DNA of 51,553 nt, from positions 248,001-299,553 of the forward strand of contig JAWLHK010000004.1 of assembly GCA_041690355.1 (NCBI GenBank). The letters are read 5' to 3'. This DNA is from a bacterium (GTDB lineage: Bacteria > J088 > JAWLBW01). The notes under the pieces are model-generated. The model saw only the letters and a list, made by a program, of their open reading frames with translations. It searched no databases and was not told where the DNA came from. Positions 8,763-25,810 of this stretch are shown piece after piece. The position numbers and the translations under genes are program-made. How positions within the stretch are numbered: the first letter of the stretch is position 1; each line of letters opens with the position of its first letter.

Positions 8763-8862
8763 GGGGGGCTGGTTTGTCAGCCGGTCCCTTTGCGCGCCGT
8801 CCTCCCTTTGCCGTTCGCTTTAACGGATGGTTAGAATGTCTCCGACGAACCGGAGACGCGAA

Positions 8863-10005
8863 ATGATCCCAGAAAACCGGCCCGCTCAGACCGATCAGGA
8901 TGTTGATCGGCTGGTCCGAGCCGAACAGGTCGAAGTGATTTACCGGCAGGCCATCCCGGCCATGCTGATCAGCATCGCCGTCGCCAGCCTGCTCTCGGCG
9001 ATCCTCTGGGACGTCACCCCGCGAACGAAGCTCATCGCCTGGTTGGCGGCGATTATCGTGGTCGCCCTGGTTCGGGCCGGGATCGTCTTCTTCTACTGGC
9101 GTACCTCGCCGCGCGGCCTTGGCGTGCTCGCCTGGGAACGGCCGTTCATTCTCTCGCTCATGGTTTCGGCCGCGGTGTGGGGCATCGGCGGCTGGCTGCT
9201 GCTTCCCGCCGACTCGACGCTGCACCAGGCCGTCGTCTATTTCTTTCTGATGGGCATGACCGGCGGCTCTGCCGCCTTGTATTCCGCCCATTTCTTCGGG
9301 GTCGCGTTTACGATCCTCATCATCCTGGTGCCTGCCACGGTTGCCCTCTTCGCAGAGAGAGCGCTCATTCCGGTCGGATTGGCGGCGGGCGGCTGCATAT
9401 ACGTTCTTTCGACGCTCCGATCGGCAAAGCTGTTCGCCTTCTTCCGGCGACGCTCTGCGCAGCTTGCCCATGAGCTGAGCCACGCGCACGCCAAGGCCGA
9501 AGAACTGGCGCGAACCGATGAACTGACGGGACTTCACAACCGCCGGTCCTTTCTGGAACTCGGCCGGCTGGTGCTCGACCAGGCGGGCCGCTTCGAACAT
9601 TCTGTTTCGCTCGTGATGCTCGATGTCGACTACTTCAAGCGCATCAACGACACCCACGGCCACGCAGCGGGAGACGCGGCTCTTCAGCATGTCGCCCGGT
9701 TCCTGCAAGAGAACCTGCGAAGCGCCGATATCTGCGGACGGCTCGGGGGCGAAGAATTCGCGGTCCTCCTTCCGGCGACCTCTGCGGACGATGCCCTCGC
9801 GGTGGCCGAAAAGCTGCGGGAATTGCTCGCGGCCTCGCCGGTCGCCTTTCAAGGAATGGAATTCCAGGTGACGGCGAGCTTCGGCGTGGCCGCGACCCCG
9901 GGTCAAGTCGAGGAGCTGCTGCAACGCGCCGACGCGGCTCTCTACCGCGCCAAACACGAGGGGCGCAACCGCGTAATGCTGGATGGCGGGGTGGTTCGGG
10001 CTTAG
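8863..10005 (+). CDS. Membrane-bound diguanylate cyclase (GGDEF)
   Basis: Several hydrophobic helices, then TDELTGLHNRR, DVDYFKRINDTHGHAAGD and RSAD-x5-GGEEF (I-site plus active site). GGAGA RBS before ATG 8863. Confidence 0.92.
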   Translation: MIPENRPAQTDQDVDRLVRAEQVEVIYRQAIPAMLISIAVASLLSAILWDVTPRTKLIAWLAAIIVVALVRAGIVFFYWRTSPRGLGVLAWERPFILSLMVSAAVWGIGGWLLLPADSTLHQAVVYFFLMGMTGGSAALYSAHFFGVAFTILIILVPATVALFAERALIPVGLAAGGCIYVLSTLRSAKLFAFFRRRSAQLAHELSHAHAKAEELARTDELTGLHNRRSFLELGRLVLDQAGRFEHSVSLVMLDVDYFKRINDTHGHAAGDAALQHVARFLQENLRSADICGRLGGEEFAVLLPATSADDALAVAEKLRELLAASPVAFQGMEFQVTASFGVAATPGQVEELLQRADAALYRAKHEGRNRVMLDGGVVRA

Positions 10006-10077: not shown

Positions 10078-10482
10078 ATGAACACGCTCAAGACGCCGCT
10101 CCGATTCGTGCTCGCCGCCGCTATGGTCTTCATCGGCGTGCTTCACTTCGTGCGCCCCGACCCGTTCGTCGCCATCGTTCCGGGCTTTCTCCCCGCCCCC
10201 CTGGCGCTCGTCTGGATCAGCGGCGCCTTCGAAATTCTCGGCGGGCTCGGACTGCTCGTTCCGCAGACGCGGCGCGCGGCGGCCTGGGGGTTGATCCTGC
10301 TTTACATCGCCGTCTTTCCAGCGAACATCAACATGGCGGTCAACGAGATCCCGCTGGATGGCCAGCAAGTTTCTCCTGTCGCCCTCTGGTTGCGGCTCCC
10401 CCTGCAGGCCGTCTTCATCGCGTGGGCCTGGTGGTATACGCAGTGCGAGCCGGCAACGGGCGCGGCGGGAGAAATGGTTTAA
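10078..10482 (+). CDS. DoxX-like membrane protein
   Basis: GVLHFVRPDPF...ISGAFEILGGLGLL...AVFPANINMA; four hydrophobic segments; AGGAG RBS. Confidence 0.85.
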   Translation: MNTLKTPLRFVLAAAMVFIGVLHFVRPDPFVAIVPGFLPAPLALVWISGAFEILGGLGLLVPQTRRAAAWGLILLYIAVFPANINMAVNEIPLDGQQVSPVALWLRLPLQAVFIAWAWWYTQCEPATGAAGEMV

Positions 10483-10540: not shown

Positions 10541-10589
10541 GAAAAAAACAAAAAGGGCTTCGGATGTCTCCGAAGCCCTTTGTTTTTTC
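10541..10589. terminator. Bidirectional intrinsic terminator between the DoxX gene and tRNA-Ala
   Basis: AAAGGGCTTCGGA-TGTC-TCCGAAGCCCTTT hairpin flanked by A-rich and T-rich runs. Confidence 0.85.
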
Positions 10590-10594
10590 TATCT

Positions 10595-10670
<76 letters not shown>

Positions 10671-10851
10671 GAGGTCTCTGGGCAGGCGACCGTGGCCACC
10701 TGAAACTTTTAGAATATCCGAAAGGGGAGACAAGAGTCAAGGCTGACGTTGGTCTTCGGACGTCGGACGCCGGACGTCGGCTAAAACAAGTGCAGGCCCG
10801 GCAGTTGCGGATCAACCACGGAGACTCCCCAAGGACGCCGACCGGTAGGAT

Positions 10852-11027
10852 ACCCACGCCCTTGCCGGAAATTCGTCACTCGTCACTCGGGAGAGCGCCG
10901 AGCACTGAGCACTGAAGAGGCCGCAAGGTCTACTGTAAGGTGCCCCCCTCGGGGGAACGCTTTCGGCAATTGCTTTCGAGATGGAGGGGGGCAAATCGTC
11001 AATCGTAAATCGTCAATTGTAAATTCG
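10852..11027. repeat. Composite intergenic repeat built of heptamers, copy A
   Basis: CGTCACT x2, GAGCACT x2 and AATCGT(C/A) runs. 10852-10886 is the exact reverse complement of 34261-34295. Confidence 0.8.
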
Positions 11028-11778
11028 TGAGCACGCCCGGTTCCCGCAGGAATCCCGCGACCGCCGCCACGTCGGCTTCCGTGAGTCCCGCGACCGTTTC
11101 GAGCGCCTCGCCGAACGCCATCTCCGCCTGCAGGGCCCTCATTAGTTCCGCCTGGGGGACGGGGAGCACGACGGTGCGCACCGTGAGGTCCGGGTCGCGC
11201 CAGACGAGCACCGGTTCGGGGCGGTCCGCGAGATCCAGTTCCGCCTCGTTTCCCGGCGCGTCGACCAGGGCGCGCAGGGTCGCAATCGGCCAAGGGGAAT
11301 CGACGAGCGCCGCCGCCGGCGCAAAGCGGGGTCGCCAGCGGGCCAGCACATCGGCATCGGCAGGAAACTCGGGGGCGCCAGCACTTCCCCGCGCAAAGAA
11401 CGCCAGGTGCACGGCGTGCTCCAGGCGCGCCAGATCGCCGAGGAAGGGAAAGTCGGCCAGCTCCGGCTCACCCTGCAGGAACGCGGGGAACCGATTGCCC
11501 GCGCGGCCGAGATCCCAGGTGCGCGAACGGTGCCCATCCGCAAACCGGTGCGCCAGGATCTGGAAGTTCTCTTCGCCCAAAATCCTGCGGACGGCAGGAA
11601 ACGCCTCGATCAACGCCTCGTGCAGCCGCGCGCGGTAGCCCTCGACGTAGACGTCGAACCGGTGCGCGCTATCGGGGGCCAGCAGCGACCGGAGGCGGGC
11701 AAGTTCACCCTCGTTCCCCGAAAAGAGCGCGTCGAGCAGTGTCTGCTGGAAGGTAGCCAGCGTACGGTCAGACGTCAT
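10999..11778 (-). CDS. DUF2063-family MNIO partner protein (BufC/HvfC-like)
   Basis: [41 protein letters not shown]...[22 protein letters not shown]. Alternative ATG at 11793. Confidence 0.88.
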
Positions 11779-11822
11779 GCCGCAGCGCGCCATGCTTGAT
11801 AAATCGGAAACACATGTAAAAC

Positions 11823-11851
11823 TTTACCAGCCTTGGGCAGGGCGGTACAAT
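11823..11851 (+). promoter_or_regulatory. Putative sigma70-type promoter of the poly-HAMP kinase
   Basis: TTTACC-N17-TACAAT, 60 bp upstream of ATG 11912. Confidence 0.45.
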
Positions 11852-11911
11852 CTTGGCGACCCTTGTCCGGCAGGGCCCCGAAGCGCCCGCCCCCCTTTTC
11901 GAGGACTTTCC

Positions 11912-14900
11912 ATGGCCACGACACGAATCCTTGAAGACGCCATCGATACCACCCAGCTTCTCAAAGTACTGACCGCCGTCAAGAAGGGCAACTTCGCCGT
12001 ACGCATGCCGCTCGATTCCGACGGCGTGGCCGGCAAGATCTACGACGCCCTGAACGACATCATCGACATGAACGACCGCCTGAGCAAAGAGCTCGAGCGC
12101 ATCTCGTCGTCGGTGGGTAAAGAGGGCAAGCTCACGCAGCGCGCTTCGCTCCCGGGTTCGAGCGGCCGGTGGAAAAGCTCCATGGAGGCGATCAACAACC
12201 TGATTACCAACCTCGTGCAGCCGACGACCGAAATGGCGCGCGTCATCAACGCCGTCGCCAAGGGCGATCTGACCCAGAAGGTGAGCACCGAGGTCGAGGG
12301 GCGCCCCCTGCGCGGCGAGTTCCTGCGCACGGCCCGCGTCGTCAACGGCATGGTCGATCAGCTCTCGTCGTTCGCCTCGGAGGTGACCCGCGTCGCCCGC
12401 GAAGTCGGCACCGAAGGCAAGCTGGGCGGACAGGCCGTCGTGAAGGGGGTGACGGGGACGTGGAAGGATCTCACCGACAACGTGAACTCCATGGCCAACA
12501 ACCTGACGTCGCAGGTGCGCAACATCGCCGAGGTGACGACGGCCGTGGCCCGCGGCGACCTCTCCAAGAAGATCACCGTCGACGTGCGCGGCGAAATTCT
12601 CGAACTCAAGAACACAATCAACACGATGGTCGATCAGCTGTCGGTCTTCGCCTCGGAAGTGACCCGCGTGGCGCGCGAGGTCGGCACCGAAGGGCGTCTC
12701 GGCGGCCAGGCGGTCGTGCGCGGCGTAGCGGGAACGTGGAAGGATCTCACCGACACCGTAAACGCCATGGCCTCGAACCTCACTTCGCAGGTTCGCAACA
12801 TCGCCCAGGTGACGACGGCCGTGGCCACCGGCGACCTCTCGAAGAAGATCACCGTCGACGTGAAGGGGGAGATCGCCGAGCTCAAGGACACCATCAATAC
12901 GATGGTCGACCAGTTGAACTCCTTCGCCTCGGAGGTGACCCGCGTCGCCCGCGAAGTGGGCACCGAAGGCAAGCTCGGCGGGCAGGCGCAGGTGACCGGC
13001 GTCGGCGGCACGTGGAAGGATCTCACCGAGACCGTGAACGCCATGGCCTCGAACCTCACCGGCCAGGTGCGCAACATCGCCGAAGTCGCCACCGCCATCG
13101 CCCGCGGCAACCTCTCGAAGAAGATCACGGTCGACGTCAAAGGCGAAATCGCGGAACTCAAGGACACCATCAACACGATGGTCGACCAGCTGAACTCCTT
13201 CGCCTCGGAAGTGACCCGCGTCGCCCGCGAGGTCGGTACCGAAGGCAAGCTCGGCGGACAGGCCAAGGTCGAAGGGGTCGCCGGCACGTGGAAGGATCTG
13301 ACCGACACCGTGAACTCCATGGCCTCGAACCTGACGAACCAGGTGCGCAACATCGCCGAGGTCTCGACGGCCATCGCCCGCGGCGATCTGTCCAAGAAGA
13401 TTACCGTGGACGTGCAGGGCGAAATTCTCGCCCTCAAGGAAACCATCAACACGATGGTCGACCAGCTCTCATCCTTCGCCGCCGAGGTGACCCGCGTCGC
13501 CCGCGAAGTCGGCACAGAGGGAAAACTGGGCGGGCAGGCCAAAGTCGATGGCGTGGCCGGTACGTGGAAGGACCTCACCGACAACGTCAACTCCATGGCC
13601 TCGAACCTGACGTCTCAGGTGCGCAACATCGCCGAGGTCACGACGGCCGTGGCCCTGGGCGACCTGACCAAGAAGATTACTGTCGACGTGAAGGGCGAAA
13701 TCGCCCAGCTCAAAGGCACGATCAACACGATGGTCGATCAGCTCTCGTCCTTCGCCGCCGAGGTGACCCGCGTCGCCCGCGAGGTCGGTACCGAAGGCAA
13801 GCTGGGCGGACAGGCCGTCGTACGCGGCGTCGGCGGAACGTGGAAGGATCTGACCGACACCGTCAACTCGATGGCCTCGAACCTTACGAACCAGGTGCGC
13901 AACATCGCCGAAGTCGCGACCGCCATCGCGCGCGGCGACCTTTCGCGCAAGATCACCGTCGACGTGCGCGGCGAAATCCTTGAACTGAAAATCACGATCA
14001 ACACGATGGTCGACCAGCTCTCCTCCTTCGGTTCCGAAGTGACCCGCGTCGCCCGCGAAGTCGGCACGGAGGGTAAGCTCGGCGGACAGGCCATCGTGCA
14101 GGGGGTCGGCGGCACGTGGAAGGATCTCACCGACAACGTGAACTCCATGGCCTCGAACCTGACGAACCAGGTGCGCAACATCGCCCAGGTCGCCACCGCC
14201 ATCGCCCGCGGCGACCTCTCACGCAAGATCACCGTCGACGTCAAGGGTGAAATGCTCGAGCTCAAGAACACGATCAACACCATGGTCGACCAGCTGTCGT
14301 CCTTCGGCTCTGAAGTGACGCGCGTCGCCCGCGAAGTGGGAACAGAAGGTAAACTTGGCGGCCAGGCGCGCGTGCAGGGGGTCGCCGGCACGTGGAAGGA
14401 TCTCACCGACAACGTGAACCTGCTGGCCGCCAACCTGACCACCCAGGTGCGCGCCATCAGCGACGTGGCCACCGCTGTCGCCAAGGGCGACCTGAGCCGT
14501 TCGATTCAGGTCGTGGCGGCCGGCGAGGTGGCCGCCCTGAAGGACAACGTCAATGAGATGATCCGCAACCTCAAGGAGACGACGCAGATCAATACGGCGC
14601 AGGACTGGCTCAAGACCCACATGGCCAAGTTCTCGCGCATGCTTCAGGGGCAGCGCGACCTGCTCACCGTCTCGCGTAAGGTGCTCTCGGACCTCGCACC
14701 CCTCGTCAACGCGCAGTACGGCGTATTCTATCTGGCCGACGATCACGAAGACCCGACCCTGCGTCTGCTCGCCACCTACGCGTACAAACCACGCAAGGGG
14801 CAGCCCACGGAGATCCGCTTCGGCGAAGGACTGGTCGGCCAGTGCGCCATCGAGAAGCAGATGTCGCTGCTCAACAATCTGCCCGACAACTATGTGCACG

Positions 14901-17332
14901 TCAGCTCGGGGCTCGGTTCTGCGCCGCCGCGTAACGTGATCGTGCTGCCGGTGCTCTTCGAAGGGACGACGAAGGCGGTCATCGAGCTCGCCTCGATGGA
15001 GCCGTTCAGCGAACTCCACCTGACGCTGCTCGAGCAGCTCGCCGACGCCCTCGGCGTGGTCATCAACACCATTTCGGCGAATGAGCGCACCGAAGAGCTG
15101 CTCAAGCAGTCGCAGCAGATGACCGAAGAGCTCCAGAAGCAGCAGGAGAAGCTTCGCCACACGAACGCAGAGCTCGAAGAGAAGGCGCTGCTGCTCGCTC
15201 AGCAGAAGCGCGAGGTCGAAATCAAGAACGCCGAGGTCGAGTTCGCCAAGCGGACAATCGAGGAAAAAGCGAATCAGCTCGCGCTGACCTCCAAATACAA
15301 GTCCGAATTCCTCGCGAACATGTCGCACGAGCTGCGCACGCCGCTGAACTCCCTGCTCATTCTCTCGAAGATGCTCTCGGAGAATACCGACGGCAATCTT
15401 TCTGAGCGCCAGGTGGAATTCGCCGAAACCATTTACTCCTCTGGCAACGATCTGCTCGAGCTGATTAACGAAATCCTCGATCTTTCCAAGATTGAGTCGG
15501 GGACGATGGCCGTCGACAAGACCGACGTCTCCTTCCGGGATCTTCAGGAGTACGTCGAGCGCACCTTCAGCCAGATCGCCGTCAACAAGGGGCTGGAGTT
15601 CCGCATCCGGGTCGACGACGCCCTCACACCCTCCATGCACACCGACGTGAAGCGCCTGCAACAGGTGCTCAAGAACCTGCTGTCCAACGCCTTCAAGTTC
15701 ACCGACGCCGGCGAAGTGGAGCTGAGTATCTTCAGTGCGACCGAAGGGTGGAGCCCGGGCCATCCGACGCTCGGTGCCGGCGACCAGGTCGTCGCCTTCT
15801 CTGTCCGCGACACGGGTATCGGTATCCCGGCCGACAAACAGAAGATCATCTTCGAGGCTTTTCAGCAGGCAGACGGAACCACAAGCCGCAAGTACGGCGG
15901 CACCGGCCTGGGACTTTCCATCAGCCGCGAGATTGCAAAGCTGCTGGGCGGCGAACTGCGCGTCACGTCAAACCCCGGCGAGGGGAGTATGTTTACGCTC
16001 TTTGTTCCGGTCGGCGACGTTGCCCGCACCTGGACGGCCGCACCCGTGCTCCAGCCTTCGGAGAAGGTGCACCGGCCCGAGCGGGAGCGCGAACGCGGCG
16101 AAAGCTACCCCCTCTTCTCCGGCGACGACCGTGACATTGTCCAGGCCGACGATCTGAGTGTCCTTATCATTGAAGACGATCCCCACTACGCCCAGATCCT
16201 GGTCGACGCCGCGCGCGCCACCGGCTTCCGGGGCGTGGTTGCCACCAACGGCGCAGCGGCCCTGCGCGATGCGCGCACGCTGCGTCCGCAGGCCATCACG
16301 CTCGACATCCGGCTCCCCGACATGGACGGCTGGGCCGTGCTCGACCGGCTGAAGCACGACCCCGCCACGCGGCACATTCCCGTGCACATCGTGTCGATCG
16401 ACGAAGCCCTGCACCGGGGGATGCGGCTCGGGGCCTACGCCTTCGTGCAGAAGCCGAGCGATCGGGCCCAGGTCGAGGGGATCTTCGCGCGCCTGAAGTC
16501 GTTCTCGGAGCGACCGGTGCGCCGCATGCTCCTGGTCGAAGACGACGACGTACAGCGGCGCAGCCTGCGCGAGCTGATCGGGCACGAAGACATCGAGATC
16601 GACGAGGCGCGCAGCGGCGAAGAAGCCGTCGTGAAGCTCGGCAGTGACCGCTTCGACTGCATCGTGCTGGATCTCGGGCTCCCCGACGTCGAAGGCATAG
16701 AGCTCGTTCGGCGCGTGAAAGAGGCGGCCGGCCCCGTGCCCATCATCATCTATACCGGCCGCGACCTCGCGCCGCAGGAAGAGACCGAACTCCGCCGGTA
16801 TGCCGAAAGCATCGTCGTCAAGGGTCCGAGCGCGCCCGAACGCCTTCTCGACGAGACCGTCCTGTTCCTGCACCGCGTCTACACGGGCCTGTCGAACAAC
16901 CAGCGCGAGATGATCCAGGCCGCTCACCTCAACGAGCCGCTGCTCGACGGCCGTAAGGTGCTCATCGTCGACGACGACGTGCGCAACATTTATGCGCTCA
17001 CCAGCGTTCTCGAGCGCTATCGCATGAACGTGGTGCACGCCGAGAACGGCCGGGACGCCATCAGCCGCCTGCAGAACCAGACCGACATCGACATCGTGCT
17101 CATGGACGTCATGATGCCCGAGATGGATGGCTACGAAACCATGCGCTCCATCCGGCGCATCCCGCGACTGGCGGCACTGCCGATCATCGCCGTGACCGCC
17201 AAGGCCATGAAAGGCGACCGCGAGAAGTGCCTCGAGGCCGGCGCCTCGGAGTACATCACGAAGCCGGTCGATCCCGAGCACCTCGCTTCTCTGCTGCGCA
17301 TCCTGCTGTCGCGCGAAGGACGCACGTGCTGA
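11912..17332 (+). CDS. Hybrid sensor histidine kinase: poly-HAMP, GAF, HisKA, HATPase, three receiver domains
   Basis: GAGGA RBS; tandem 92-aa HAMP repeats; [15 protein letters not shown]-box; [23 protein letters not shown]; three REC domains (IIEDD, LVEDD, IVDDD). Confidence 0.95.
12340..14560 (+). repeat. Intragenic 276-bp tandem repeats (poly-HAMP)
   Basis: The WKDLT-coding sequence recurs eight times at a 276-bp period from about 12461 to about 14393. Confidence 0.92.
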
Positions 17333-18129
17333 GAACCCCCACACCGCTCGAAGTCGACCTGCTCCTCGAGGCCGTACGCCGGCTCAGCGGGTGCGATTTC
17401 AGCGCGCACTCGCGGGCCATGCTTCTCGAGCGGATCGAAGCCTTCTGCGGTGACAGCGACGTCACCACGATGCCGCAGCTCATCGATCGCATCCTGGTCG
17501 ACGACGGCGAGCGCCATGCGCTCATCGTCGCCCTTACGCGCGCGCCGGGTCCGCTTTTCCGCGACGTCCCCTTCTTCGAGGCCGTTCGCGACCGGGTTAT
17601 TCCGCTCCTGCGCACCTATCCCTCGATCCGCGTGTGGAATCCGGGGTGCGGCAACGGCGCCGATGCCGTCACCCTGGCCGCGCTGCTCGCCGAGGCGAAC
17701 CTGCTCGCACGGTGCCGGATTTACGCGACCGACCTGAACCAGAGATCGGTCGACGCGGCCGGCCGCGGCGTTTTCGACGACGTCTTCCGCCTTGAGGCGC
17801 AGGGGCTTCTCGCGCGCTATCCCGGATACTTTGTGCGACAGGGCCGGCGCATCCGTGCGCGGCCGGAACTGCGCCGGAACATCCTCTTTGCGGTGCACAG
17901 TCTGAGCACCGACGCCGACTTCAACGATTTTCACTTCATCCTGTGCCGTAATACCCTGCCCGCCTACGCGCCCCCGGTTCAGGCGCGCGCGTTTCGCCTG
18001 TTCCACCGCAGCCTCGTCTCTCTCGGCTTTCTCGCGCTGGGTCGGGGCGAGACTCTCGGCAGGCATCCCCACAGGCATGTTTACGAACCCCTGGATGAAG
18101 ACGCACGCATTTACAGGAGGCTGTCATGA
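17326..18129 (+). CDS. cheR: CheR-family methyltransferase (divergent)
   Basis: GTG overlaps the kinase stop. [32 protein letters not shown] motifs. Confidence 0.82.
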
Positions 18130-18157
18130 CACCCGTTGCCGAGCGCCGGAGCGGCTC

Positions 18158-19795
18158 ATGAACACTCCCCAGCGCGCACCCGTGCGCATCCTGCTCGTAG
18201 ACGATCTGGCCGCCAATCTGGTGGCCCTCAAGGAGATGCTGGCGAGCCCGGAATATACCCTCGTGACCGCCGCGAGCGGCCGTGAGGCCCTGCGGTGCCT
18301 GCTTGAAGGGGATTTCGCGGTCATCCTGCTTGACGTTTCGATGCCCGAGATGAATGGCTTCGAGGTCGCCGAGGCCGTCAAGGCGCGTGACCGGACCCGC
18401 GGCACGCCGATCATCTTTCTCACCGCCCTGCGTACCGACGTCAACAGCATCTATCGTGCCTACTCGGCGGGCGGTGTGGACTATCTCGAGAAGCCGCTCG
18501 ATGCGGAGATCGTCCGGGCCAAGGTCGCCGTCTTCGTGGAGCTGTACCGCCACAAGAGAGATCTCACGCTTAAGAACGAGCAGATCGCGCGGCAAGCCGA
18601 GCTCCTGCGTGAGAGCGAGCGCCGCGAGCAGGCCTACCGTCTGGCCGAGCTGCAGCGGGAGAGCGCCATCCGCTATCGGAACCTGGCGGAATCGATTCCG
18701 CAGATTGTCTGGACGGCCCGCCCCGACGGCGGGGTCGAATATATGAATGCGCGGTGGTCTGAGGCAACCGGGATGGCGCTGGCCGATGCACACGAAGAGG
18801 GCTGGCTCGAGGCCGTCGATACCCCGCAGCGGGAGGCATTCCTGATCGCCTGGCGGCAATGCCTGCGTGACCGGCGCCCCTTCGAGTCAGAGTGCCGGCT
18901 GCGCAGGGCGGCAGGCGAGCCTCGCTGGTACCTCTGCCGCGCGCTCCCCGAAGTCGACCGCGATGGCACGATCATCAACTGGCTCGGGACCTTTACCGAC
19001 ATCGACGAGGCCAAGCGCGCCTCTGAAGAGCGCGCGCTGCTGCTGGAGCGAGCCAATCGCGCGGTCGAGATCCGGGACGAATTTCTCTCGATTGCCTCCC
19101 ACGAGCTCAAGACGCCGCTGACCGCGCTGCGGCTGCAGCTTCAGCTGCTGCAACGGCGCCTCCAGATGGGCGGTGCCGATGACCCCCGGACGATGATTGA
19201 AGAAAAGCTCGGGCTGGTGAGCGGAGCCGTCCGGCGCATGACCGATCTGATCGACAATCTCCTGGATGTGACCCGTGTCGCCGCGGGGGTTCTCGAGCTC
19301 GACCGGAAAGAAACGCTGCTGAACGAGGCTGTCGAATCTGTGATCGCCAATCTCACGGCCGGTCACACGCCGGAGGTTCGCTTGCGAAGCGTCGCGCCGG
19401 TGGCGGGGTACTGGGACCGCCTGCGCATCGAACAGGTGCTCACCAATCTGGTTTCCAATGCCTTGAAGTACGGGGACGGAAAGCCGGTCGAGGTGTCAAT
19501 TGCCGAAGAGCCGGGCTGGGCCGTCGTAAGCATCCGCGACCACGGGATCGGCATCCGCAAGGACAAGCTCGGCACAATCTTCGACCGATTCGAGCGGCTC
19601 GTCGGCGGCAGACAGTACCCCGGCCTCGGGCTCGGGCTGTACATTTCCCGCGAAATCGTGCAGGCCCACGGCGGGCGGATCGAGGTGGAGAGCGCCCCTG
19701 ACTATGGATCCAGCTTCACCGTGCGTCTGCCCCTGGCCCGGCCCGGGGTCGCCGATGAACCAGCCGCGGGCCCGGCTGAACCGCTCTCGTCCTGA
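18158..19795 (+). CDS. Hybrid response regulator / PAS histidine kinase
   Basis: ILLVDD...LLDVSMPEMNG receiver; PAS (ESIPQIVW, WLGTFTDIDE); EFLSIASHELKTPL; NLVSNALKY, DHGIGI, GLGLGLYI. Confidence 0.93.
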   Translation: MNTPQRAPVRILLVDDLAANLVALKEMLASPEYTLVTAASGREALRCLLEGDFAVILLDVSMPEMNGFEVAEAVKARDRTRGTPIIFLTALRTDVNSIYRAYSAGGVDYLEKPLDAEIVRAKVAVFVELYRHKRDLTLKNEQIARQAELLRESERREQAYRLAELQRESAIRYRNLAESIPQIVWTARPDGGVEYMNARWSEATGMALADAHEEGWLEAVDTPQREAFLIAWRQCLRDRRPFESECRLRRAAGEPRWYLCRALPEVDRDGTIINWLGTFTDIDEAKRASEERALLLERANRAVEIRDEFLSIASHELKTPLTALRLQLQLLQRRLQMGGADDPRTMIEEKLGLVSGAVRRMTDLIDNLLDVTRVAAGVLELDRKETLLNEAVESVIANLTAGHTPEVRLRSVAPVAGYWDRLRIEQVLTNLVSNALKYGDGKPVEVSIAEEPGWAVVSIRDHGIGIRKDKLGTIFDRFERLVGGRQYPGLGLGLYISREIVQAHGGRIEVESAPDYGSSFTVRLPLARPGVADEPAAGPAEPLSS

Positions 19796-19807
19796 TTGCG
19801 CCCAGGC

Positions 19808-20671
19808 TCAGCGCGGGGCAAGCGCCGCTGACGCACGCTCACGGGCGCGGTCAGCCTCTTCGGCAAGCCGGGCAAACGCGGGGACGTCGGTATCCCACTC
19901 GATCAGCGTGCTCACCGGCCTGCGGGCGTGCCGCAGGGCTTCGGTGTAGAGGTCCCAGACGACGTCGGGCGTGGGCCCGACATGGTCGTCGAAGAGAAAA
20001 TCATCGCGCCGCGAGTGGCCGGCCACGTGAATCTCCACGATTCGCTCGGCAGGCATCCGCCGCACGTAGTCGAGCGGGTCCAGTCCATGATTGAAGGCGT
20101 TGACGACGACGTTGTTCACGTCGAGCAGCAGCAGGCAGTCGGCGCGCGCCGCCACTTCGGCCACGAATTCAGCCTCGGAGATGGTGTCAGCGCGGGTGCG
20201 GACGTAGGTGGAAATGTTTTCCACGGCGATGCGGCGGCCGAGCCGATCCTGGACGCGCAGAATGTTCTCGACGGCGATGCGCAGCGCCTCGTCGGTCAGG
20301 GGCAGGGGCAGGAGGTCATGGGAATGATGGCCGCCGAGGGAGCTGAAGCAGAGGTGATCCGAGATCCACATCGGTTCGATGGCCGCGGCCAGTTCCGCCA
20401 GGTGATCGAGGTAGGCCGCATCGACCCCGTCGGCGCTTCCGAGCGACATCGCGACGCCGTGCAGCGCGACCGGATGGTTCGCGCGGATCGCCTCGAGCTG
20501 GCGCCGCGCCGGCCCGTGAGAGTCGAGGAAGTTTTCGGTGATCGCCTCGAACCAGTCGACACGCCCCGGCGCTTCGCGGATCTCCGCATAGTGCGCCGAC
20601 TTGAGGCCGACACCCATGCCGACGTATGCCGGCCAGGATCGATGTTCAATGGCCAATGGTTGACCCTTCAT
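19808..20671 (-). CDS. DUF692 multinuclear non-heme iron oxidative enzyme (MNIO; BufB/HvfB-like)
   Basis: GVGLK..HY, WFEAITENF, HGVAMS, SDHLCF, DLLPLP, ENISTY, LLLDVNN, EIHVAGH, DDH, LIEWD. Start at 20671 after GAGGGGGG; the longer track start lies inside the IS. Confidence 0.95.
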   Translation of the reverse strand: MKGQPLAIEHRSWPAYVGMGVGLKSAHYAEIREAPGRVDWFEAITENFLDSHGPARRQLEAIRANHPVALHGVAMSLGSADGVDAAYLDHLAELAAAIEPMWISDHLCFSSLGGHHSHDLLPLPLTDEALRIAVENILRVQDRLGRRIAVENISTYVRTRADTISEAEFVAEVAARADCLLLLDVNNVVVNAFNHGLDPLDYVRRMPAERIVEIHVAGHSRRDDFLFDDHVGPTPDVVWDLYTEALRHARRPVSTLIEWDTDVPAFARLAEEADRARERASAALAPR

Positions 20672-20688
20672 TCGGGTCCCCCCTCGGG

Positions 20689-21990
20689 CTAAGCATTGAT
20701 CACATCTTTTGGCCTGGCTAACAGCCAGCCCAGTTCGTAATCGTGTAGTTTTTCCAGTCCGCGCCCTATTGTGAGCCACCCTGGAAGCCCATTTTGTTTC
20801 AGGTGCCCACCCAATGACGCGACGGTCGTCAAGGCATCCTGCACGGTCTTAAGCGGGAGGTTCGCCGTTCTTGGAAGGACTCGTAGAATTTCGAGCTGCG
20901 TTGGATTCAGCACCTCTGAAGCCGGCCGGTCGCCTCCGATGCGGGCGAGGGTGCGTAGTGTCAGCATTTGCAGCGCCATGGGTACAAAGATGCCCAAGGC
21001 AACCAGCATGTTCTCATACGATTCGAGCTGCCGCTTCTCCAGCTGGCAGCCGGTTTTCAATGCTTTAAAATACTCCTCCACTATCCACCGCGCACGGTAT
21101 ATGTCGACGATTCGCAGCATCGCCTCCGGCGTCGAAATACTCTCCGTGCTGTAGAGCAGCCACTCCACGGGCTTTACGTCGTCCGGTGCATTCACCTCCG
21201 TCACGCAAACAATATTCACCGGAATCCGACCGCTCGTCGTTTCGAGCTCGACACTGGTCGCGGCAATCGAAAGGGTGGCCAATCGGGCGTCGCGGGGTGG
21301 ATGGGCCTTCTGGTCCTCCTTGTTACCGGATTTTCTCCGACTCGGTAATTCAATCTCCCGCTCTGCCGCAACTTTCGCACGGGAGAGCGCTGTGGAGACG
21401 CGCTTGTCATCGCCAGCGATGCGACGATCGATTCTTCCCCGAATAACAAAGGCGCACTGCGAGGAAATGAGTTCAAAAAGGAGCTTGCCGTCGTCGCCCT
21501 CGCGATCCATCACGTGAATGGCTCGTCTGTCGAGGCACCTTTCGGACGCCTTGACTCCTTCCAGCCAACGGAGCTGTTCACTTGCAGCGCCTTCAGCCTT
21601 CTTCTCGTGCGCACCTCGAGGGCTCGGGATCACGCTCGCTAATCCCAATGGGACTCGGTTTTCAAGCTCCACGGCCAGCGACACATGGCAACGAAAATCA
21701 ACGGACGCGCTGTTGACGTCGGTGGTGTCGTGGAGGACAAGCAGGCTGCTCTGGCCCGCTGCGCGGGCCCTTGTCTGTGAGTAGTGCCCGGACAGAATTT
21801 CCGGCAATGATACCCGTTCGTTCCTGATAAACCGGTACGTTCCCTCGAGGTCACTGGATTTCATCGCCGCTGGAAAGCTTAATGAGGGATCGCTACGAAG
21901 CCTGTCGGCGATATGAATCAAACGGTTTTCAAGGCGCCTGTCGACCAGGCGCGAATATCGAAAATCACCGACGAAGTCGAAGGCTGACAT
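20689..21990 (-). CDS. IS4-family DDE transposase (Tn5-like)
   Basis: DRRLENRL...YRFIRNERV N-terminal domain; LHDTT, MDREGD, YRARWIVEEYFKALK (DDE/YREK). Stop codon coincides with the element end. Alternative GTG at 22014. Confidence 0.93.
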   Translation of the reverse strand: MSAFDFVGDFRYSRLVDRRLENRLIHIADRLRSDPSLSFPAAMKSSDLEGTYRFIRNERVSLPEILSGHYSQTRARAAGQSSLLVLHDTTDVNSASVDFRCHVSLAVELENRVPLGLASVIPSPRGAHEKKAEGAASEQLRWLEGVKASERCLDRRAIHVMDREGDDGKLLFELISSQCAFVIRGRIDRRIAGDDKRVSTALSRAKVAAEREIELPSRRKSGNKEDQKAHPPRDARLATLSIAATSVELETTSGRIPVNIVCVTEVNAPDDVKPVEWLLYSTESISTPEAMLRIVDIYRARWIVEEYFKALKTGCQLEKRQLESYENMLVALGIFVPMALQMLTLRTLARIGGDRPASEVLNPTQLEILRVLPRTANLPLKTVQDALTTVASLGGHLKQNGLPGWLTIGRGLEKLHDYELGWLLARPKDVINA

Positions 21991-22066
21991 GGAGACCCCA
22001 TAGCGCGTGTGCACTATATGGGATCAGAACCGACGATCCGTGTCCAGAGATGTGTATGATCTTTAG
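20689..22066 (-). mobile_element. Complete IS4-family (IS50/Tn5-like) insertion sequence, 1378 bp
   Basis: 19-bp ends CTAAGCATTGATCACATCT (20689-20707) and CTAAAGATCATACACATCT (reverse complement of 22048-22066), 13/19 identical. 9-bp target duplication CCCCTCGGG at 20680-20688 and 22067-22075. Visibly lower GC than flanks. Confidence 0.95.
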
Positions 22067-22122
22067 CCCCTCGGGGGACGACAGGGGGGCCTGAAGGAGC
22101 CGGCTGAAGTCCTGACCGCAGC

Positions 22123-22380
22123 TTACTTCGGTTCCTTCAGACTCGCGCCCTTGATCTTCAGGCACGCGTCCTTGTCCATCTTGACCCAGCCCTTACCCTT
22201 GCAGGCATTCAGGCCCATGCAACCGTGCGACTTGGTGGCGCACTCGGTTTTTCCCTTGCAGGAGTTGCCACCCCAGCATTGGACTTTTTCGCCGCCGGCA
22301 GCAGGCTTCTCGGCGGCTTGAGACGGGGCGGCAACGACGAGACCGGCCAGCGCGGCGGTCAACAGGGCAGACTTCTTCAT
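22123..22380 (-). CDS. Secreted Cys-rich RiPP precursor (bufferin BufA2-like), 85 aa
   Basis: Signal peptide MKKSALLTAALAGLVVAAPSQA; core CWGGNSCKGKTECATKSHGCMGLNACKGKGWVKMDKDAC with six Cys and two NxCKG motifs; GGAG RBS; 64 bp upstream of DUF692 once the IS is removed. Confidence 0.88.
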   Translation of the reverse strand: MKKSALLTAALAGLVVAAPSQAAEKPAAGGEKVQCWGGNSCKGKTECATKSHGCMGLNACKGKGWVKMDKDACLKIKGASLKEPK

Positions 22381-22473
22381 GCGGAAACACTCCAATCGCG
22401 CGGCCGTGGAAAAGGCCGCTGTTCAACATGGTACCGGACCAGCGCAGGGCATGGCGAACGCCGAGCGCGCTGC

Positions 22474-22500
22474 AAGGAAAGGCGCCCCCGGAGGGGCGCC
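22474..22500 (-). terminator. Putative terminator after yceI
   Basis: GGCGCCCC-N4-GGGGCGCC hairpin followed by TTTCCTT on the minus strand. Confidence 0.6.
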
Positions 22501-22522
22501 AGGCATCAGGAAAACGCGCGGC

Positions 22523-23113
22523 TTACTTCGCGGGCTTCGGATTCGCTTCGACAAAGAGCTCGATCTCGACGTCGTCACCCACGACAATGCTGCCGGTCTC
22601 GGTGATCTTGCTCCAGGCAATGCCGAAGTCCTTGCGGTTGACCTTCGTGGTGGCCTGGAAGGCGGCGGCATCGCGGCCGTAGGCGTCCTTGGTCATGCCG
22701 AGAAAGACGGCATCGAGGACGATGGGTTTCGTGACGCCGCGCATCGTCAGGTTGCCGTGAATCTTGAAGCCGCTCCCCTCCGAAACGACCTTCGTCGACT
22801 TGAAGATCAGCTTCGGGTGCTTCTCGACGAGAAAGAAGTCACCGCTGCGCAGGTGATCGTCGCGCTTCGCATTGTTCGTGTCGATGGAGGCAGCGTCGAT
22901 CTCAAACACGACCTTCGAGTTTTCGATCTTTTTGGCATCCCAGGTGAACTCGCCGGAGAACTTGTTGAACTGCCCGCGTACCTTGGCCAGCAGGTGGCGC
23001 ACGGTAAAGTTCACGTTCGTGTGCGCCGTATCCACGACGAAGTCCTGGGCCGAGGCGCTCCCGGCGAACAGCGCGACGCCGAGCAGGGCGCCGAGGATAG
23101 AATTCCTATTCAT
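22523..23113 (-). CDS. yceI: YceI-family periplasmic lipid/polyisoprenoid-binding protein
   Basis: Signal peptide; VDTAHTNVNFTVRHL, ASIDTNNAKRDDHLRSGDFF, GNLTMRGVTKPI, NRKDFGI. Confidence 0.93.
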   Translation of the reverse strand: MNRNSILGALLGVALFAGSASAQDFVVDTAHTNVNFTVRHLLAKVRGQFNKFSGEFTWDAKKIENSKVVFEIDAASIDTNNAKRDDHLRSGDFFLVEKHPKLIFKSTKVVSEGSGFKIHGNLTMRGVTKPIVLDAVFLGMTKDAYGRDAAAFQATTKVNRKDFGIAWSKITETGSIVVGDDVEIELFVEANPKPAK

Positions 23114-23277
23114 GGTTCTGGATTCCCTTCTTCTGTTTTCAGCGTCAAAAAAAGCCCCCCGTTCTGCGGGAGGCCGTACGGACAATTCCAATATCATGAG
23201 ACGCACGGGCGCGGCGAATCGTTCACGTCAGGCGGGCCGCGTCAGTCAAGAACAGCGGATCGCGTCAGTGAAGATGA

Positions 23278-23694
23278 TCAGCGGGAACCGTCTTCGGGCG
23301 GATAGACGGATAGATACTCGGCTTCGCGATTGGTCGGCCAGACGCCGGCGCGGTTCAGCTCCCATTCGGCATAGCGCGGGAGCGCGCCGTCGGTCCACGC
23401 GAAGCGCACCACGTACCGATCGATCGGCTGGGTCTCGGCATAGGCATACCATCCGTCGACGCGGACGGCCGCGGTCGCTTCGCCCATGTAGGTCTTGACG
23501 GCTTCGCGCACGGTGCGGAAATAGCCGTGGCCCGGCGTGAACAGGACGGCGCGGATCGCGCTCCGGCCCACGACCGACGTCTCGCGGGCGTATCCGCCGG
23601 GCGGCACGAACTCCCGTTGGGGGAGCGGGTCGCAGGCGAACAGGGCCGCCGCGAGGAAAAGCAGGGGTAACCAACGCACGGTATATGGTACCAC
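23278..23694 (-). CDS. Small hypothetical lipoprotein
   Basis: RWLPLLFLAAALFAC lipobox; follows the SDR gene by 18 bp. Start may be GTG 23679. Confidence 0.65.
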   Translation of the reverse strand: MVPYTVRWLPLLFLAAALFACDPLPQREFVPPGGYARETSVVGRSAIRAVLFTPGHGYFRTVREAVKTYMGEATAAVRVDGWYAYAETQPIDRYVVRFAWTDGALPRYAEWELNRAGVWPTNREAEYLSVYPPEDGSR

Positions 23695-23712
23695 CGTGCG
23701 AGGACCCGGAGA

Positions 23713-24564
23713 TCAGTCTTTGCGGTCGGGATCCAGGTAGCTCGCCGTCCGGGCACGGGCGGCATCGTCGCCGCCGAGGTAGTCGGGGATCTCCCAGATG
23801 TCGCCCCAGTTCTGGGCGCCGCCGTCGACGGCCAGGGTTTCGCCGCTGATGAAATCCGATGCGGGCGACACCATGAACGCTGTGGCCCAGGCGATCTCCT
23901 CCTCGGACCCGAGGCGCTTGGCGGGGATGGCGTGGCGGCTCGTCGCGACCAGCTCGGGCGGATACTGCTTCATGCCGGTGGACTGGATGGTGCCGGGGGC
24001 CACGGACGTAACCTGGATGTTGTACCTGGCCCACTCGGTGCCGAGGGTCTTGGTCATGTTGACGACGCCGGCGCGCGCGGCCCCCGTGTGCACCATGCCG
24101 GGGAACCCTTTCCACATGTTCGCCGTGATCGTGCAGATCTTGCCGCCGCCGTTTTCAATCATCCACTTGAGCGCCACGGCGCGCGTCATGTTCCACGTGC
24201 CGTTCAGGTTGTTGGTCACCACGGCGGCGAACCCGTTGGGCGAGATCATCTCGGCCGGCGAGGGGAACTGGCCGCCGGCATTGTTGATGAGGATATCGAT
24301 GCGTCCGTACTCCTTGAGCACGGCGTCGACGAAGGCGTCGACTTCGTCAGCCTTGCGGATGTCGCAGGTATGCACGAAGGTGGCAATGCCGCGCTCCTTC
24401 AGCTCGGCGGCGCCCGTCTGCAGCTTCTCGAGGTTGCGGCCCGAAATGGCGATCTTCGCGCCCAGGCGCCCGAGCTCGCGGGCGATGGCCAGACCGATAC
24501 CCGCGCCGCCGCCGGTGACGATGGCGACCTTGTCCTTGAACAGACCTTCAGCAAACACGTTCAC
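23713..24564 (-). CDS. SDR oxidoreductase (trans-2-enoyl-CoA / 2,4-dienoyl-CoA reductase-like)
   Basis: TGGGAGIG, NNAGGQF, HTGAARAGV, SGETLAVDGG; GGGGAG RBS. Confidence 0.9.
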   Translation of the reverse strand: MNVFAEGLFKDKVAIVTGGGAGIGLAIARELGRLGAKIAISGRNLEKLQTGAAELKERGIATFVHTCDIRKADEVDAFVDAVLKEYGRIDILINNAGGQFPSPAEMISPNGFAAVVTNNLNGTWNMTRAVALKWMIENGGGKICTITANMWKGFPGMVHTGAARAGVVNMTKTLGTEWARYNIQVTSVAPGTIQSTGMKQYPPELVATSRHAIPAKRLGSEEEIAWATAFMVSPASDFISGETLAVDGGAQNWGDIWEIPDYLGGDDAARARTASYLDPDRKD

Positions 24565-24670
24565 GGCAACTCCCCTTGCAGAAAGTGCTCATTGTATCCA
24601 ATGCGCTCCGGGGAGGCACGGGTGCGGAGATCAGAGTCCAGAGTCCAGAGTCGAGAGTCGAGGGCGGGTG

Positions 24671-25612
24671 TCAGCGGCCGGCGCGGCGTTCGCCGCGGCG
24701 TGGCCGCCGTCCCTCGTCCTCCGGCCTTACGTGCAGCGGGAGCTCCCGCTGGATGGGGGGAAGGAAGGCGTCTGCGTACTGGCGGGCAAAGCGCTCGAAG
24801 GGGCTGGGCCGGTGGTGGGTCAGATCGAGAACCGTTTCGGTGACGTGGGCGGCGCCGTTGTCGATGTGAAAGGCGGCGCGCTCGATGAGAAGCTCGGCGA
24901 GCCACGCCGGGACGCCCGCCTCGGCGTACCGGTCGATCATCTCTTCGGCACTGACCGCAACGTAATGGATCTCGCGCTGCAGCGTGGCCGAGAGCCTCCG
25001 GGCGACCTCTTCGGCCGTCAGCGCCTCTGGGCCCGTCAAGGTGTAGGCGTTACCCGCATGCGCTTCGGGGCGCAGCAGTACCTCGACGGCGGCAGCGGCG
25101 ACGTCGAGGGCGTGAATGTAACTGACGCGGGCATCCCCCTCGGCCAGGTAGAACTTCCCTTCACGCCGGATGCTCTCGCCATGCGTCATCGCGAACTTCT
25201 GCATGAAGCAATTCGGTCGCAGAAACGCGTGCGGAATGCCGGATTCCTCGATGTAGCGCTCAATCTCCCGGTGACGGCGCGCCATCTCGAACGACTCGGT
25301 GTCTGCGCCGAGCGTCGACTGCTTGACCAGAAACTGCACGCCCGCCCGGGCGGCGGCATTGACGATGTTTCGCGCCAGGCGTACCTGATCGGGGGCATCG
25401 GGCGTGACCTGATAGAGAAAGCGGCACCCCTCGAGGGCCATGTCGAGGGTCTCGGGCCGGTCGTAATCGACCACGACGTGCTGCGCTTCGGGAGCGGCGG
25501 CGAGAATTTCGCCCGGATGGTGGACGGCCGCCCGAACACGCGCGCCGCGAGCGAGCAGGCGGGCGACCAGTTCGGTTCCTACGGTCCCTGACGCGCCGGT
25601 GACGAGGATCAT
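24671..25612 (-). CDS. NmrA-family NAD(P)-binding protein
   Basis: MILVTGASGTVG, HREIE, LRPNCFMQ, YTLTGPEALT. Confidence 0.9.
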   Translation of the reverse strand: MILVTGASGTVGTELVARLLARGARVRAAVHHPGEILAAAPEAQHVVVDYDRPETLDMALEGCRFLYQVTPDAPDQVRLARNIVNAAARAGVQFLVKQSTLGADTESFEMARRHREIERYIEESGIPHAFLRPNCFMQKFAMTHGESIRREGKFYLAEGDARVSYIHALDVAAAAVEVLLRPEAHAGNAYTLTGPEALTAEEVARRLSATLQREIHYVAVSAEEMIDRYAEAGVPAWLAELLIERAAFHIDNGAAHVTETVLDLTHHRPSPFERFARQYADAFLPPIQRELPLHVRPEDEGRRPRRGERRAGR

Positions 25613-25810
25613 ACCGCCACCGTAGCACAGGCGGAATCGGGGCGGGAGCCTGGGGGCGCGTGCTCCGGAGGGCTCGCTTGAACCCTGCAGGCAAAGTGCT
25701 GGAATCCGTCGGAGCCCGGTCCGTGTCTCTTCACGGCCGCACGGGTCTCCGCGGATGCCTGACAAGGAGTCTACCCGGTCAACATTACCGGTTGATGACC
25801 AGTGAAAGTA

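Follow-up and report, generated by a model that had tools for sequence, protein, structure and literature searches.

A Buf2-type bufferin gene cluster split by an insertion sequence and by an opposite-strand signalling operon

What becomes of a peptide-modification pathway when its genes cease to be neighbours? Bufferins are recently described, very widespread copper-binding peptides, whose maturase and its partner protein are usually encoded side by side or as one protein. We here examined 51,553 nt of the bacterial contig JAWLHK010000004.1 (this whole stretch is hereafter called the window; overall GC content 65.3%), in which the genes for the bufferin precursor (bufA2), the MNIO maturase (bufB) and its DUF2063 partner (bufC) lie far apart. 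A preliminary description of this DNA had taken them for a bufferin-type MNIO cluster split twice, and this is borne out: an IS4-family insertion sequence (IS) forms the first split, and a block of signalling genes on the opposite strand the second. The locus is a real and tidy operon disruption, with a possible gene fission and without evidence for a new regulatory principle or architecture; it looks like a genome rearrangement rather than a new kind of regulation. The interpretation that we favour, with moderate confidence, is that of a canonical Buf2-type, yceI-associated cluster with the core order bufA2-bufB-bufC, whose genes were dispersed but not rewired by two independent insertions.

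An intact Buf2 gene set

The cluster consists of the following genes.

22523-23113, minus strand: yceI, upstream neighbour of bufA2 (Pfam YceI, 167.1 bits)
22123-22380, minus strand: bufA2, precursor of 85 aa (NCBIfam NF050166)
19808-20671, minus strand: bufB, MNIO (DUF692) maturase of 287 aa (NCBIfam NF050167)
10999-11793, minus strand: bufC, DUF2063 partner (Pfam PF09836), of 264 or 259 aa depending on which ATG is used (11793 or 11778, respectively)

That precursor, DUF692 and DUF2063 genes are intact, on the minus strand and in the usual order, as the preliminary description had it, was confirmed by family models and by the conserved residues that the products retain. The bufA2 product scores 68.9 bits on the BufA2 model NF050166 (cut-off 60), appears from its translation, judged by eye, to carry a Sec-type signal peptide, and has six cysteines that align with those of the precursors of related loci. 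For the bufB product, we obtained 329.9 bits with PF05114 and 332 bits with the BufB model NF050167 (cut-off 310), and its relatives by sequence in the PDB are 3BWW and 8HCI/8HI7/8HI8. The bufC product reaches 67.4 bits on PF09836 (DUF2063; cut-off 27.2), and its length fits a partner of about 250–260 aa, that is, PME-type 1; it scores 58.8 on the NCBIfam HvfC model (cut-off 142), and when its C-terminus was searched for an RRE-type domain, NGO1945_C matched at 17.8 bits, under the cut-off of 27. A profile built from 71 BufC sequences matches PDB entry 3DEE. Taken by sequence, precursor, enzyme and partner alike place the cluster in the Buf2 bufferin family. Apart from two stray weak matches, the window holds no further copy or remnant of bufB or bufC.

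The one respect in which the cluster departs from the Buf2 gene features that we tested is contiguity of the core genes on one strand: the gap between bufA2 and bufB now measures 1,451 nt, with the IS inside it, and that between bufB and bufC 8,014 nt. The closest described counterpart is buf2 of Caulobacter vibrioides, which in the accessible part of its description comprises bufA2-bufB2-bufC2 (CCNA_02999-03001) without doxX; in Caulobacter, the modification needs BufB and BufC and nothing beyond these two (PMC11626156). Both systems share a six-cysteine precursor with a Sec signal, an MNIO and a DUF2063 partner, and both lack doxX as well as internal sigma/anti-sigma genes. They differ in that the Caulobacter genes are contiguous, whereas the window has an IS between bufA2 and bufB and 8,014 nt with opposite-strand genes between bufB and bufC, and in that yceI precedes the precursor gene in the window.

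The preliminary description had further remarked on the lack of a sigma/anti-sigma pair, as an often-seen companion of such operons. Its absence stands, since no sigma or anti-sigma domain was found by Pfam in the scanned open reading frames (ORFs) of the window, but the pair is not a usual partner for this type of cluster: as far as the accessible text of a recent survey goes, the core of a bufferin cluster is precursor, MNIO, DUF2063 and DoxX, and sigma/anti-sigma genes occur in Buf1 clusters and are not reported in Buf2 clusters (PMC12452194). Because the precursor is of the six-cysteine Buf2 type, the absence is to be expected here.

The first split: a simple insertion of an IS4-family element

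Between bufA2 and bufB, the following features were identified.

20689-22066, minus strand: IS4-family (IS50/Tn5-like) element of 1,378 bp, with transposase, inverted ends and target duplication
20689-22014, minus strand: transposase ORF (Pfam Tnp_DNA_bind and DDE_Tnp_1; NCBIfam NF033590, 232 bits, cut-off 160)
20689-20707 and 22048-22066: terminal inverted repeats, 19 bp, imperfect (13 of 19 positions match)
22067-22075: target-site duplication, copy 1, 9 bp, identical to 20680-20688
20680-20688: target-site duplication, copy 2, 9 bp, including a purine-rich, Shine-Dalgarno-like stretch before bufB

Imperfect inverted ends of 19 bp, together with a perfect target duplication of 9 bp, identify this split as an ordinary, simple IS insertion. 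The element has a GC content of 56.7% compared to 65.3% for the window, in which it occurs once. Its transposase gene reads in the direction of the buf genes and ends together with the IS, whose final triplet is the stop codon, 17 nt before the ATG of bufB. Since the duplicated target carries the purine-rich stretch, the ribosome-binding site of bufB has been kept, and bufB could be translated from a transcript leaving the IS. Once the element and one copy of the duplication are removed, bufA2 and bufB are separated by a spacer of 64 nt; the reconstructed empty site (79 nt) folds at -34.4 kcal/mol, a value without a shuffle comparison that supports nothing beyond a "structured spacer".

With the IS50/Tn5-type members of the IS4 family, the element shares a DDE transposase with a Tn5-type N-terminal DNA-binding domain and a transposase stop inside the element end. 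The ends of IS50 (19 bp, imperfect) and the size of its target duplication (9 bp) are presumably alike as well. The transposase is at most about 32% identical to those of a plasmid collection, the best matches being mostly haloarchaeal, and no named IS was matched.

A separate observation concerns the target itself. GC-rich palindromes of similar make (a run of C, GA, a run of G) are found on the minus strand at 22067-22090, the IS target site, and at 10941-10993, downstream of bufC.

The second split: a self-contained phosphorelay operon

What lies between bufB and bufC is of a different kind.

11794-19807: whole segment separating the stop of bufB from the start of bufC, 8,014 nt, its borders exactly at gene ends
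11912-17332, plus strand: soluble poly-HAMP hybrid histidine kinase (Pfam: about nine HAMP, GAF, HisKA, HATPase and three REC domains)
12350-14452, plus strand: tandem array within the HAMP region, 276-bp unit, 7.6 copies (tandem repeat search)
17326-18129, plus strand: CheR-type S-adenosylmethionine-dependent methyltransferase (Pfam CheR, 89.2 bits, and CheR_N), starting at a GTG that overlaps the stop of the preceding kinase gene
18158-19795, plus strand: REC-PAS-HisKA-HATPase kinase, third gene of the operon (Pfam; start chosen among candidates)
19796-19807: spacer of 12 nt between the convergent stops of bufB and the REC-PAS kinase gene
11794-11911: divergent intergenic region of 118 nt between bufC and the poly-HAMP kinase gene, AT-rich on the bufC side

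The block is a self-contained, tight three-gene phosphorelay operon with overlapping or closely spaced genes. The translation of the poly-HAMP kinase shows no N-terminal membrane segment, and by Pfam the block encodes HAMP, GAF, PAS, HisKA, HATPase, REC and CheR domains and no DNA-binding or transcriptional output domain. Its GC content (64.5%) is close to that of the window, with GC contents at third codon positions (GC3) of 0.81–0.86. A single inversion would not produce the layout, because bufB and bufC share their orientation.

Some features of the operon deserve mention in their own right. It holds no receptor gene, and its CheR-type gene is translationally coupled to that of the poly-HAMP kinase; no CheW, MCP-signal or CheA-type domain was found by Pfam in the three proteins, and the block is in this respect not a Che cluster. 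With the NCBIfam 'EpsF' model, the REC-PAS kinase reaches 392 bits, far under the cut-off of 900.

Comparison with related loci

Is such a split common among bufferin clusters? A scan of genome contigs with BufB yielded 599 matching stretches, comprising 492 confirmed relatives, and we compared the best 80 of these 492 loci. The ORFs downstream of BufB were extracted for each locus, and 114 candidates were scanned against Pfam. The arrangement was readable, meaning an uninterrupted BufB ORF with room downstream, at 76 of the 80 loci; at two others (L014, L070) the contig ends too near bufB to judge, and at the last two (L065, L069) the script found no intact BufB ORF, although L069 has a BufC match 80 nt downstream.

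DUF2063 adjoins BufB as a separate ORF at 71 of the 76 readable loci and is fused to it at the remaining five (L007, L015, L019, L023 and L032; 542–571 aa). The earlier statement that precursor, DUF692 and DUF2063 genes are normally contiguous agrees with these counts (76/76 for the last two), and none of the readable loci has an insertion between bufB and bufC. In line with this, a tblastn search with the window's BufC matched the stretch immediately 3' of BufB in 52 of the 80 loci, and nothing elsewhere in any of them; BufA2 was detectable by tblastn in 26 of the 80, its nearest copy lying 17–234 nt from the BufB match in all 26. No CheR occurs in the 80 loci, and the kinase matches found there are generic domain matches at other positions. 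The layout is more than chance, and the split arrangement of the window is unique within this sample.

An upstream yceI gene on the same strand was seen in 5 of the 80 loci (L007, L021, L023, L024 and L028), which are those with the closest BufB. They come from uncultured bacteria: L024 from Binatia, L021 and L028 from Thermodesulfobacteriota and L023 from Omnitrophota, with L007 as the fifth. These loci share with the window the gene order including yceI, all on one strand, and their proteins are 49–52% (BufB) and 31–35% (BufC) identical to those of the window; they differ from it in being contiguous throughout and, in the case of L007 and L023, in that BufB and BufC are fused. In none of the five does a DoxX gene directly follow bufC. 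The literature on bufferins, DUF692 and MNIO found by a targeted search does not mention YceI.

Two observations on the compared loci stand apart from these counts. At L019, a gene for an extracytoplasmic function (ECF)-type sigma factor (11705-12484) directly follows the fused bufBC beside a six-cysteine precursor, which contrasts with the survey, in whose accessible text sigma genes belong to Buf1 and not to Buf2 clusters (PMC12452194). At L076, one of the 71 loci with a separate DUF2063 ORF, a single ORF of 441 aa (5689-7014) combines DUF2063 and DoxX, which points to a fusion of BufC with BufD or else to a missed stop.

BufB and BufC as a pair

Do BufB and BufC still match one another after the split? 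Separate maximum-likelihood trees (quick search, LG+G4) were inferred with 69 other rows for BufB and 70 for BufC, and the five rows nearest to the window are the same set in both: L024, L027, L021, L028 and L026. When the fused proteins were added as cut domains, L007 and L023 joined both lists of nearest rows. In no tree does the window fall into a well-supported clade.

Sequence conservation lies within the range of the family. BufB keeps all 27 columns that are invariant across 70 BufB sequences and 58 of the 61 columns conserved to at least 90%, ranking 19th lowest of 70; BufC keeps 15 of 16 columns conserved to at least 80% and ranks 52nd lowest of 71. A BufB-BufC complex was predicted with each chain given its own alignment, and scored 0.91 in three runs versus 0.01 for the best control, with a predicted local distance difference test (pLDDT) of at least 84 for the partner and at least 94% of contacts common to the runs. 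Of 157 solved complexes, 116 reach the mark used for such predictions, as do 2 of 215 mismatched pairs; these counts are only a rough guide here owing to the use of own alignments. Since MNIO-partner complexes of other subfamilies have already been solved, this result tells us that the pair resembles complexes of a familiar type, and does not demonstrate that this particular copy binds. Together, the trees, the conserved columns, the lack of other copies in the window and the modelled complex mark BufB and BufC as an intact, co-descended and interface-compatible pair.

Expression and a proposed course of events

How would three dispersed genes still be expressed? The following signals bear on this.

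22481-22500, minus strand: hairpin with U-rich tail after yceI, a strong terminator-like site (fold z -1.92)
11823-11851, plus strand only: sigma-70-like site in the 118-nt divergent region
10941-10993, minus strand: structured element immediately 3' of the stop of bufC, with a 10-bp GC stem and no U tract (z -2.44; 3 of 200 shuffles fold as well)

Given this strong hairpin and U-rich tail behind yceI, bufA2 probably has its own promoter. The 30 nt beside the ATG of bufC are 67% AT in a genome of 65% GC. At the 12-nt junction between the convergent bufB and kinase genes (19796-19807), the preliminary description had seen no terminator, and both a site scan and a fold test agree: no terminator-like site was found there, and the sequence folds no better than its shuffles (z +1.41 and +0.52).

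We propose that two events shaped the locus. In one, the IS landed in the 64-nt spacer between bufA2 and bufB, duplicating 9 bp and preserving the ribosome-binding stretch of bufB. In the other, a segment of 8,014 bp with its own promoter region and the opposite three-gene operon would have come to lie exactly between the stop of bufB and the start of bufC. The three buf genes would consequently be carried on separate transcripts and still form a working BufA2/BufB/BufC system: bufA2 would be transcribed from its own promoter past the yceI terminator, bufB by read-through or by transcription reading out of the IS, and bufC from a promoter within the AT-rich divergent region that the scans did not recognise. 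BufB and BufC would then turn BufA2 cysteines into thiooxazoles in the cytoplasm, and the Sec pathway would export the modified BufA2, which would bind copper in the periplasm. The kinases, having no demonstrated link to the RiPP genes, are in this scenario probably passengers.

A pair that still looks functional with its genes 8 kb apart would allow one to ask, in a natural setting, whether an MNIO and its partner can assemble without co-translation or operon coupling. The locus also holds a caution for genome mining, as pipelines that require adjacency would score this maturase as partnerless.

Alternative explanations

Several observations speak against two insertions into a cluster that still works, and we list them together. 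The 8-kb block lacks the marks of a mobile element or genomic island: by Pfam it contains no mobility gene, its ends bear no direct or inverted repeat of at least 9 nt, and its composition does not deviate. Its "insertion" is not distinguishable from a relocation of bufC. The expression of bufC is unproven, and no promoter-like site for this gene was found on the minus strand with either a consensus or a relaxed scan, a negative that is weak for a host of high GC content. The terminal branches of the window are long in both trees (BufB 1.13, BufC 1.06; medians 0.29 and 0.44), which could reflect sparse sampling or relaxed constraint. Finally, close relatives are lacking: the best BufB identity among the best 80 of the 492 loci is 52%, and the window's BufC is a singleton in a set of 5.8 billion proteins, the next match being 35% identical. 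Because the searched collections contain no close relative, neither of the two events can be given a date, and no allele with an empty site came to light. Of the synteny comparison that the preliminary description had proposed, the contiguity in relatives has accordingly been established, while an empty-site or shared-layout allele in close relatives (above 52% identity) was not encountered.

The main rival to dispersal without loss of function is a silenced pathway, that is, one already dead through recent insertion(s), with bufB and/or bufC poorly expressed and decay not yet visible. A recent event is suggested by the perfect 9-bp duplication and the low GC content of the IS, which cuts the precursor off from its maturase; the missing promoter-like site upstream of bufC points the same way, and the survey, in its accessible text, states the functionality of all such clusters to be unknown (PMC12452194). 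Against this, all three genes are full-length ORFs with conserved residues, bufC has a GC3 of 0.81 like its neighbours, and bufB has kept its ribosome-binding stretch, with the transposase reading towards it. The composition of the 8-kb block, being that of the genome, would fit an old event that bufC has survived, albeit an intragenomic origin would look the same. On balance, we hold a dead pathway to be possible but rather doubtful.

Could the signalling operon instead have been put in charge? The preliminary description had suggested that the RiPP pathway was placed under the control of the poly-HAMP kinase, and one may imagine bufC on a bidirectional promoter with the kinase operon, or interference at the 12-nt convergent junction, so that maturation follows signalling. 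The geometry is inviting: bufC and the kinase operon diverge from within 118 nt containing an AT-rich patch, and the convergent stops at the other end are 12 nt apart, without terminator or unusual structure. By itself, however, geometry does not speak for regulation; the block encodes no DNA-binding or other transcriptional output domain, neither a kinase nor CheR is associated with BufB in the 80 loci (CheR in 0/80), and the arrangement is a single case. Control by the kinase is hence unsupported, and we deem such co-option improbable. Nor did we find support for the other suggestion of that description, a non-contiguous operon in which transcription of bufA2-bufB runs on for 8 kb antisense to the signalling genes, down to bufC. 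While the end of bufB does lack a terminator-like site, the transcript would have to cross 8,014 untranslated nucleotides head-on to a three-gene operon, with several terminator-like hairpins on the minus strand inside the block and nothing in the sequence to speak for it. Long untranslated antisense transcripts are normally stopped by Rho-dependent termination, which makes read-through over 8 kb very unlikely, and we give this arrangement hardly any weight. An assembly artefact, in which one of the junctions joins non-adjacent sequences, seems just as implausible. The contig sequence without reads offers no direct exclusion, but the IS is flanked by matching 9-bp copies of its target, as a real insertion would leave them, the junctions of the block share no repeat of at least 9 nt that might mislead an assembler, and both of the latter fall exactly at gene ends, leaving four ORFs intact.

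A possible gene fission

Dispersal of an intact pathway leaves room for a more specific account of the second split, for which the junctions provide a hint.

19809-19815: 7-nt direct repeat, copy 2, spanning the final codons of bufB and bases 1 and 2 of its stop codon
11783-11789: copy 1 of this repeat, within the opening codons of bufC

Both copies are in the same codon phase, and removing the segment together with one copy joins bufB and bufC into an open, in-frame read-through. A shared 7-mer was found in 4.2% of 200,000 random pairs of 21-nt and 31-nt stretches from the window, corresponding to a chance of 0.042 before the one-in-three phase condition, which lowers it about threefold. The repeat at both junctions is no more than suggestive, and it was noticed post hoc.

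The product of such a joining would have many counterparts. Among the best 150 representative matches to the window's BufB, out of 6,794 proteins (E-value up to 0.001, library of 1.84 billion proteins), 88 are at least 500 aa long, 53 measure 240–330 aa and 9 have other lengths; all 30 long hits that were scanned (among P0010-P0048) contain MNIO followed by DUF2063, the fusions having about 540–615 aa. These natural fusions share with the window the same two domains in the same order, and the window represents the opposite extreme, with the domains encoded 8 kb apart. The main text of PMC12452194, so far as accessible, mentions neither MNIO-DUF2063 fusions nor dispersed MNIO and partner genes, and the main text of PMC13097082 makes no mention of fusions.

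This may point to a natural gene fission, wherein the 8-kb operon inserted at a 7-nt microhomology into an ancestrally fused bufBC, a course of events that we regard as conceivable but unlikely. Likewise tentatively, the ends of the insert may have supplied the last base of the bufB stop codon and the new ATG of bufC, with the two halves still pairing, and it is an equally speculative thought that bufC might now owe its transcription to a bidirectional promoter region shared with the poly-HAMP phosphorelay. The position of the 7-mer exactly at the bufB stop and in the first bufC codons, the in-frame read-through and the abundance of fused forms argue for fission. Evolutionary trees do not: in a tree of the window and 149 of the best 150 proteins (without P0099, which at 205 aa was too short), the four rows nearest to the window are unfused, and the fused or unfused state changes at least 31 times over a poorly resolved topology. 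With the window in no starred clade, the trees allowed no decision between a fused and an unfused ancestor.

Neighbouring genes and further observations

Several ORFs around the cluster were considered as additional members and set aside. A DoxX-like ORF (10078-10482, plus strand) came into question as the missing bufD, but lies on the opposite strand and matches DoxX_2 weakly (28.4 bits); a tblastn search with it found nothing in the 80 comparison loci. As bufC is not directly followed by DoxX in the closest clade either, and Caulobacter buf2 has no doxX, we do not count this ORF as bufD. It sits downstream of a GGDEF gene (8827-10005) and is probably unrelated to the buf cluster. On the other side, an ORF at 22379-23305 (plus strand), tried as a divergent regulator, proved to be the antisense frame of the YceI gene, and another at 23798-25591 (plus strand) is antisense to genes for a short-chain dehydrogenase and an NmrA-like protein.

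About 330 nt downstream of bufC, a gene for tRNA-Ala(GGC) is located on the minus strand (10595-10670), with a promoter-like site at 10713-10740. A bidirectional terminator-like hairpin lies next to it (10552-10581), and neither an integrase nor an island signature adjoins. For the fused loci, the ORFs encoding BufB-BufC are L007:10016-11713, L015:10001-11689, L019:9989-11704, L023:9965-11677 and L032:432-2060. Upstream of yceI, the minus strand at 23278-25765 encodes a putative lipoprotein of 138 aa without a family match, the short-chain dehydrogenase (23713-24564) and the NmrA-like protein (24671-25765).

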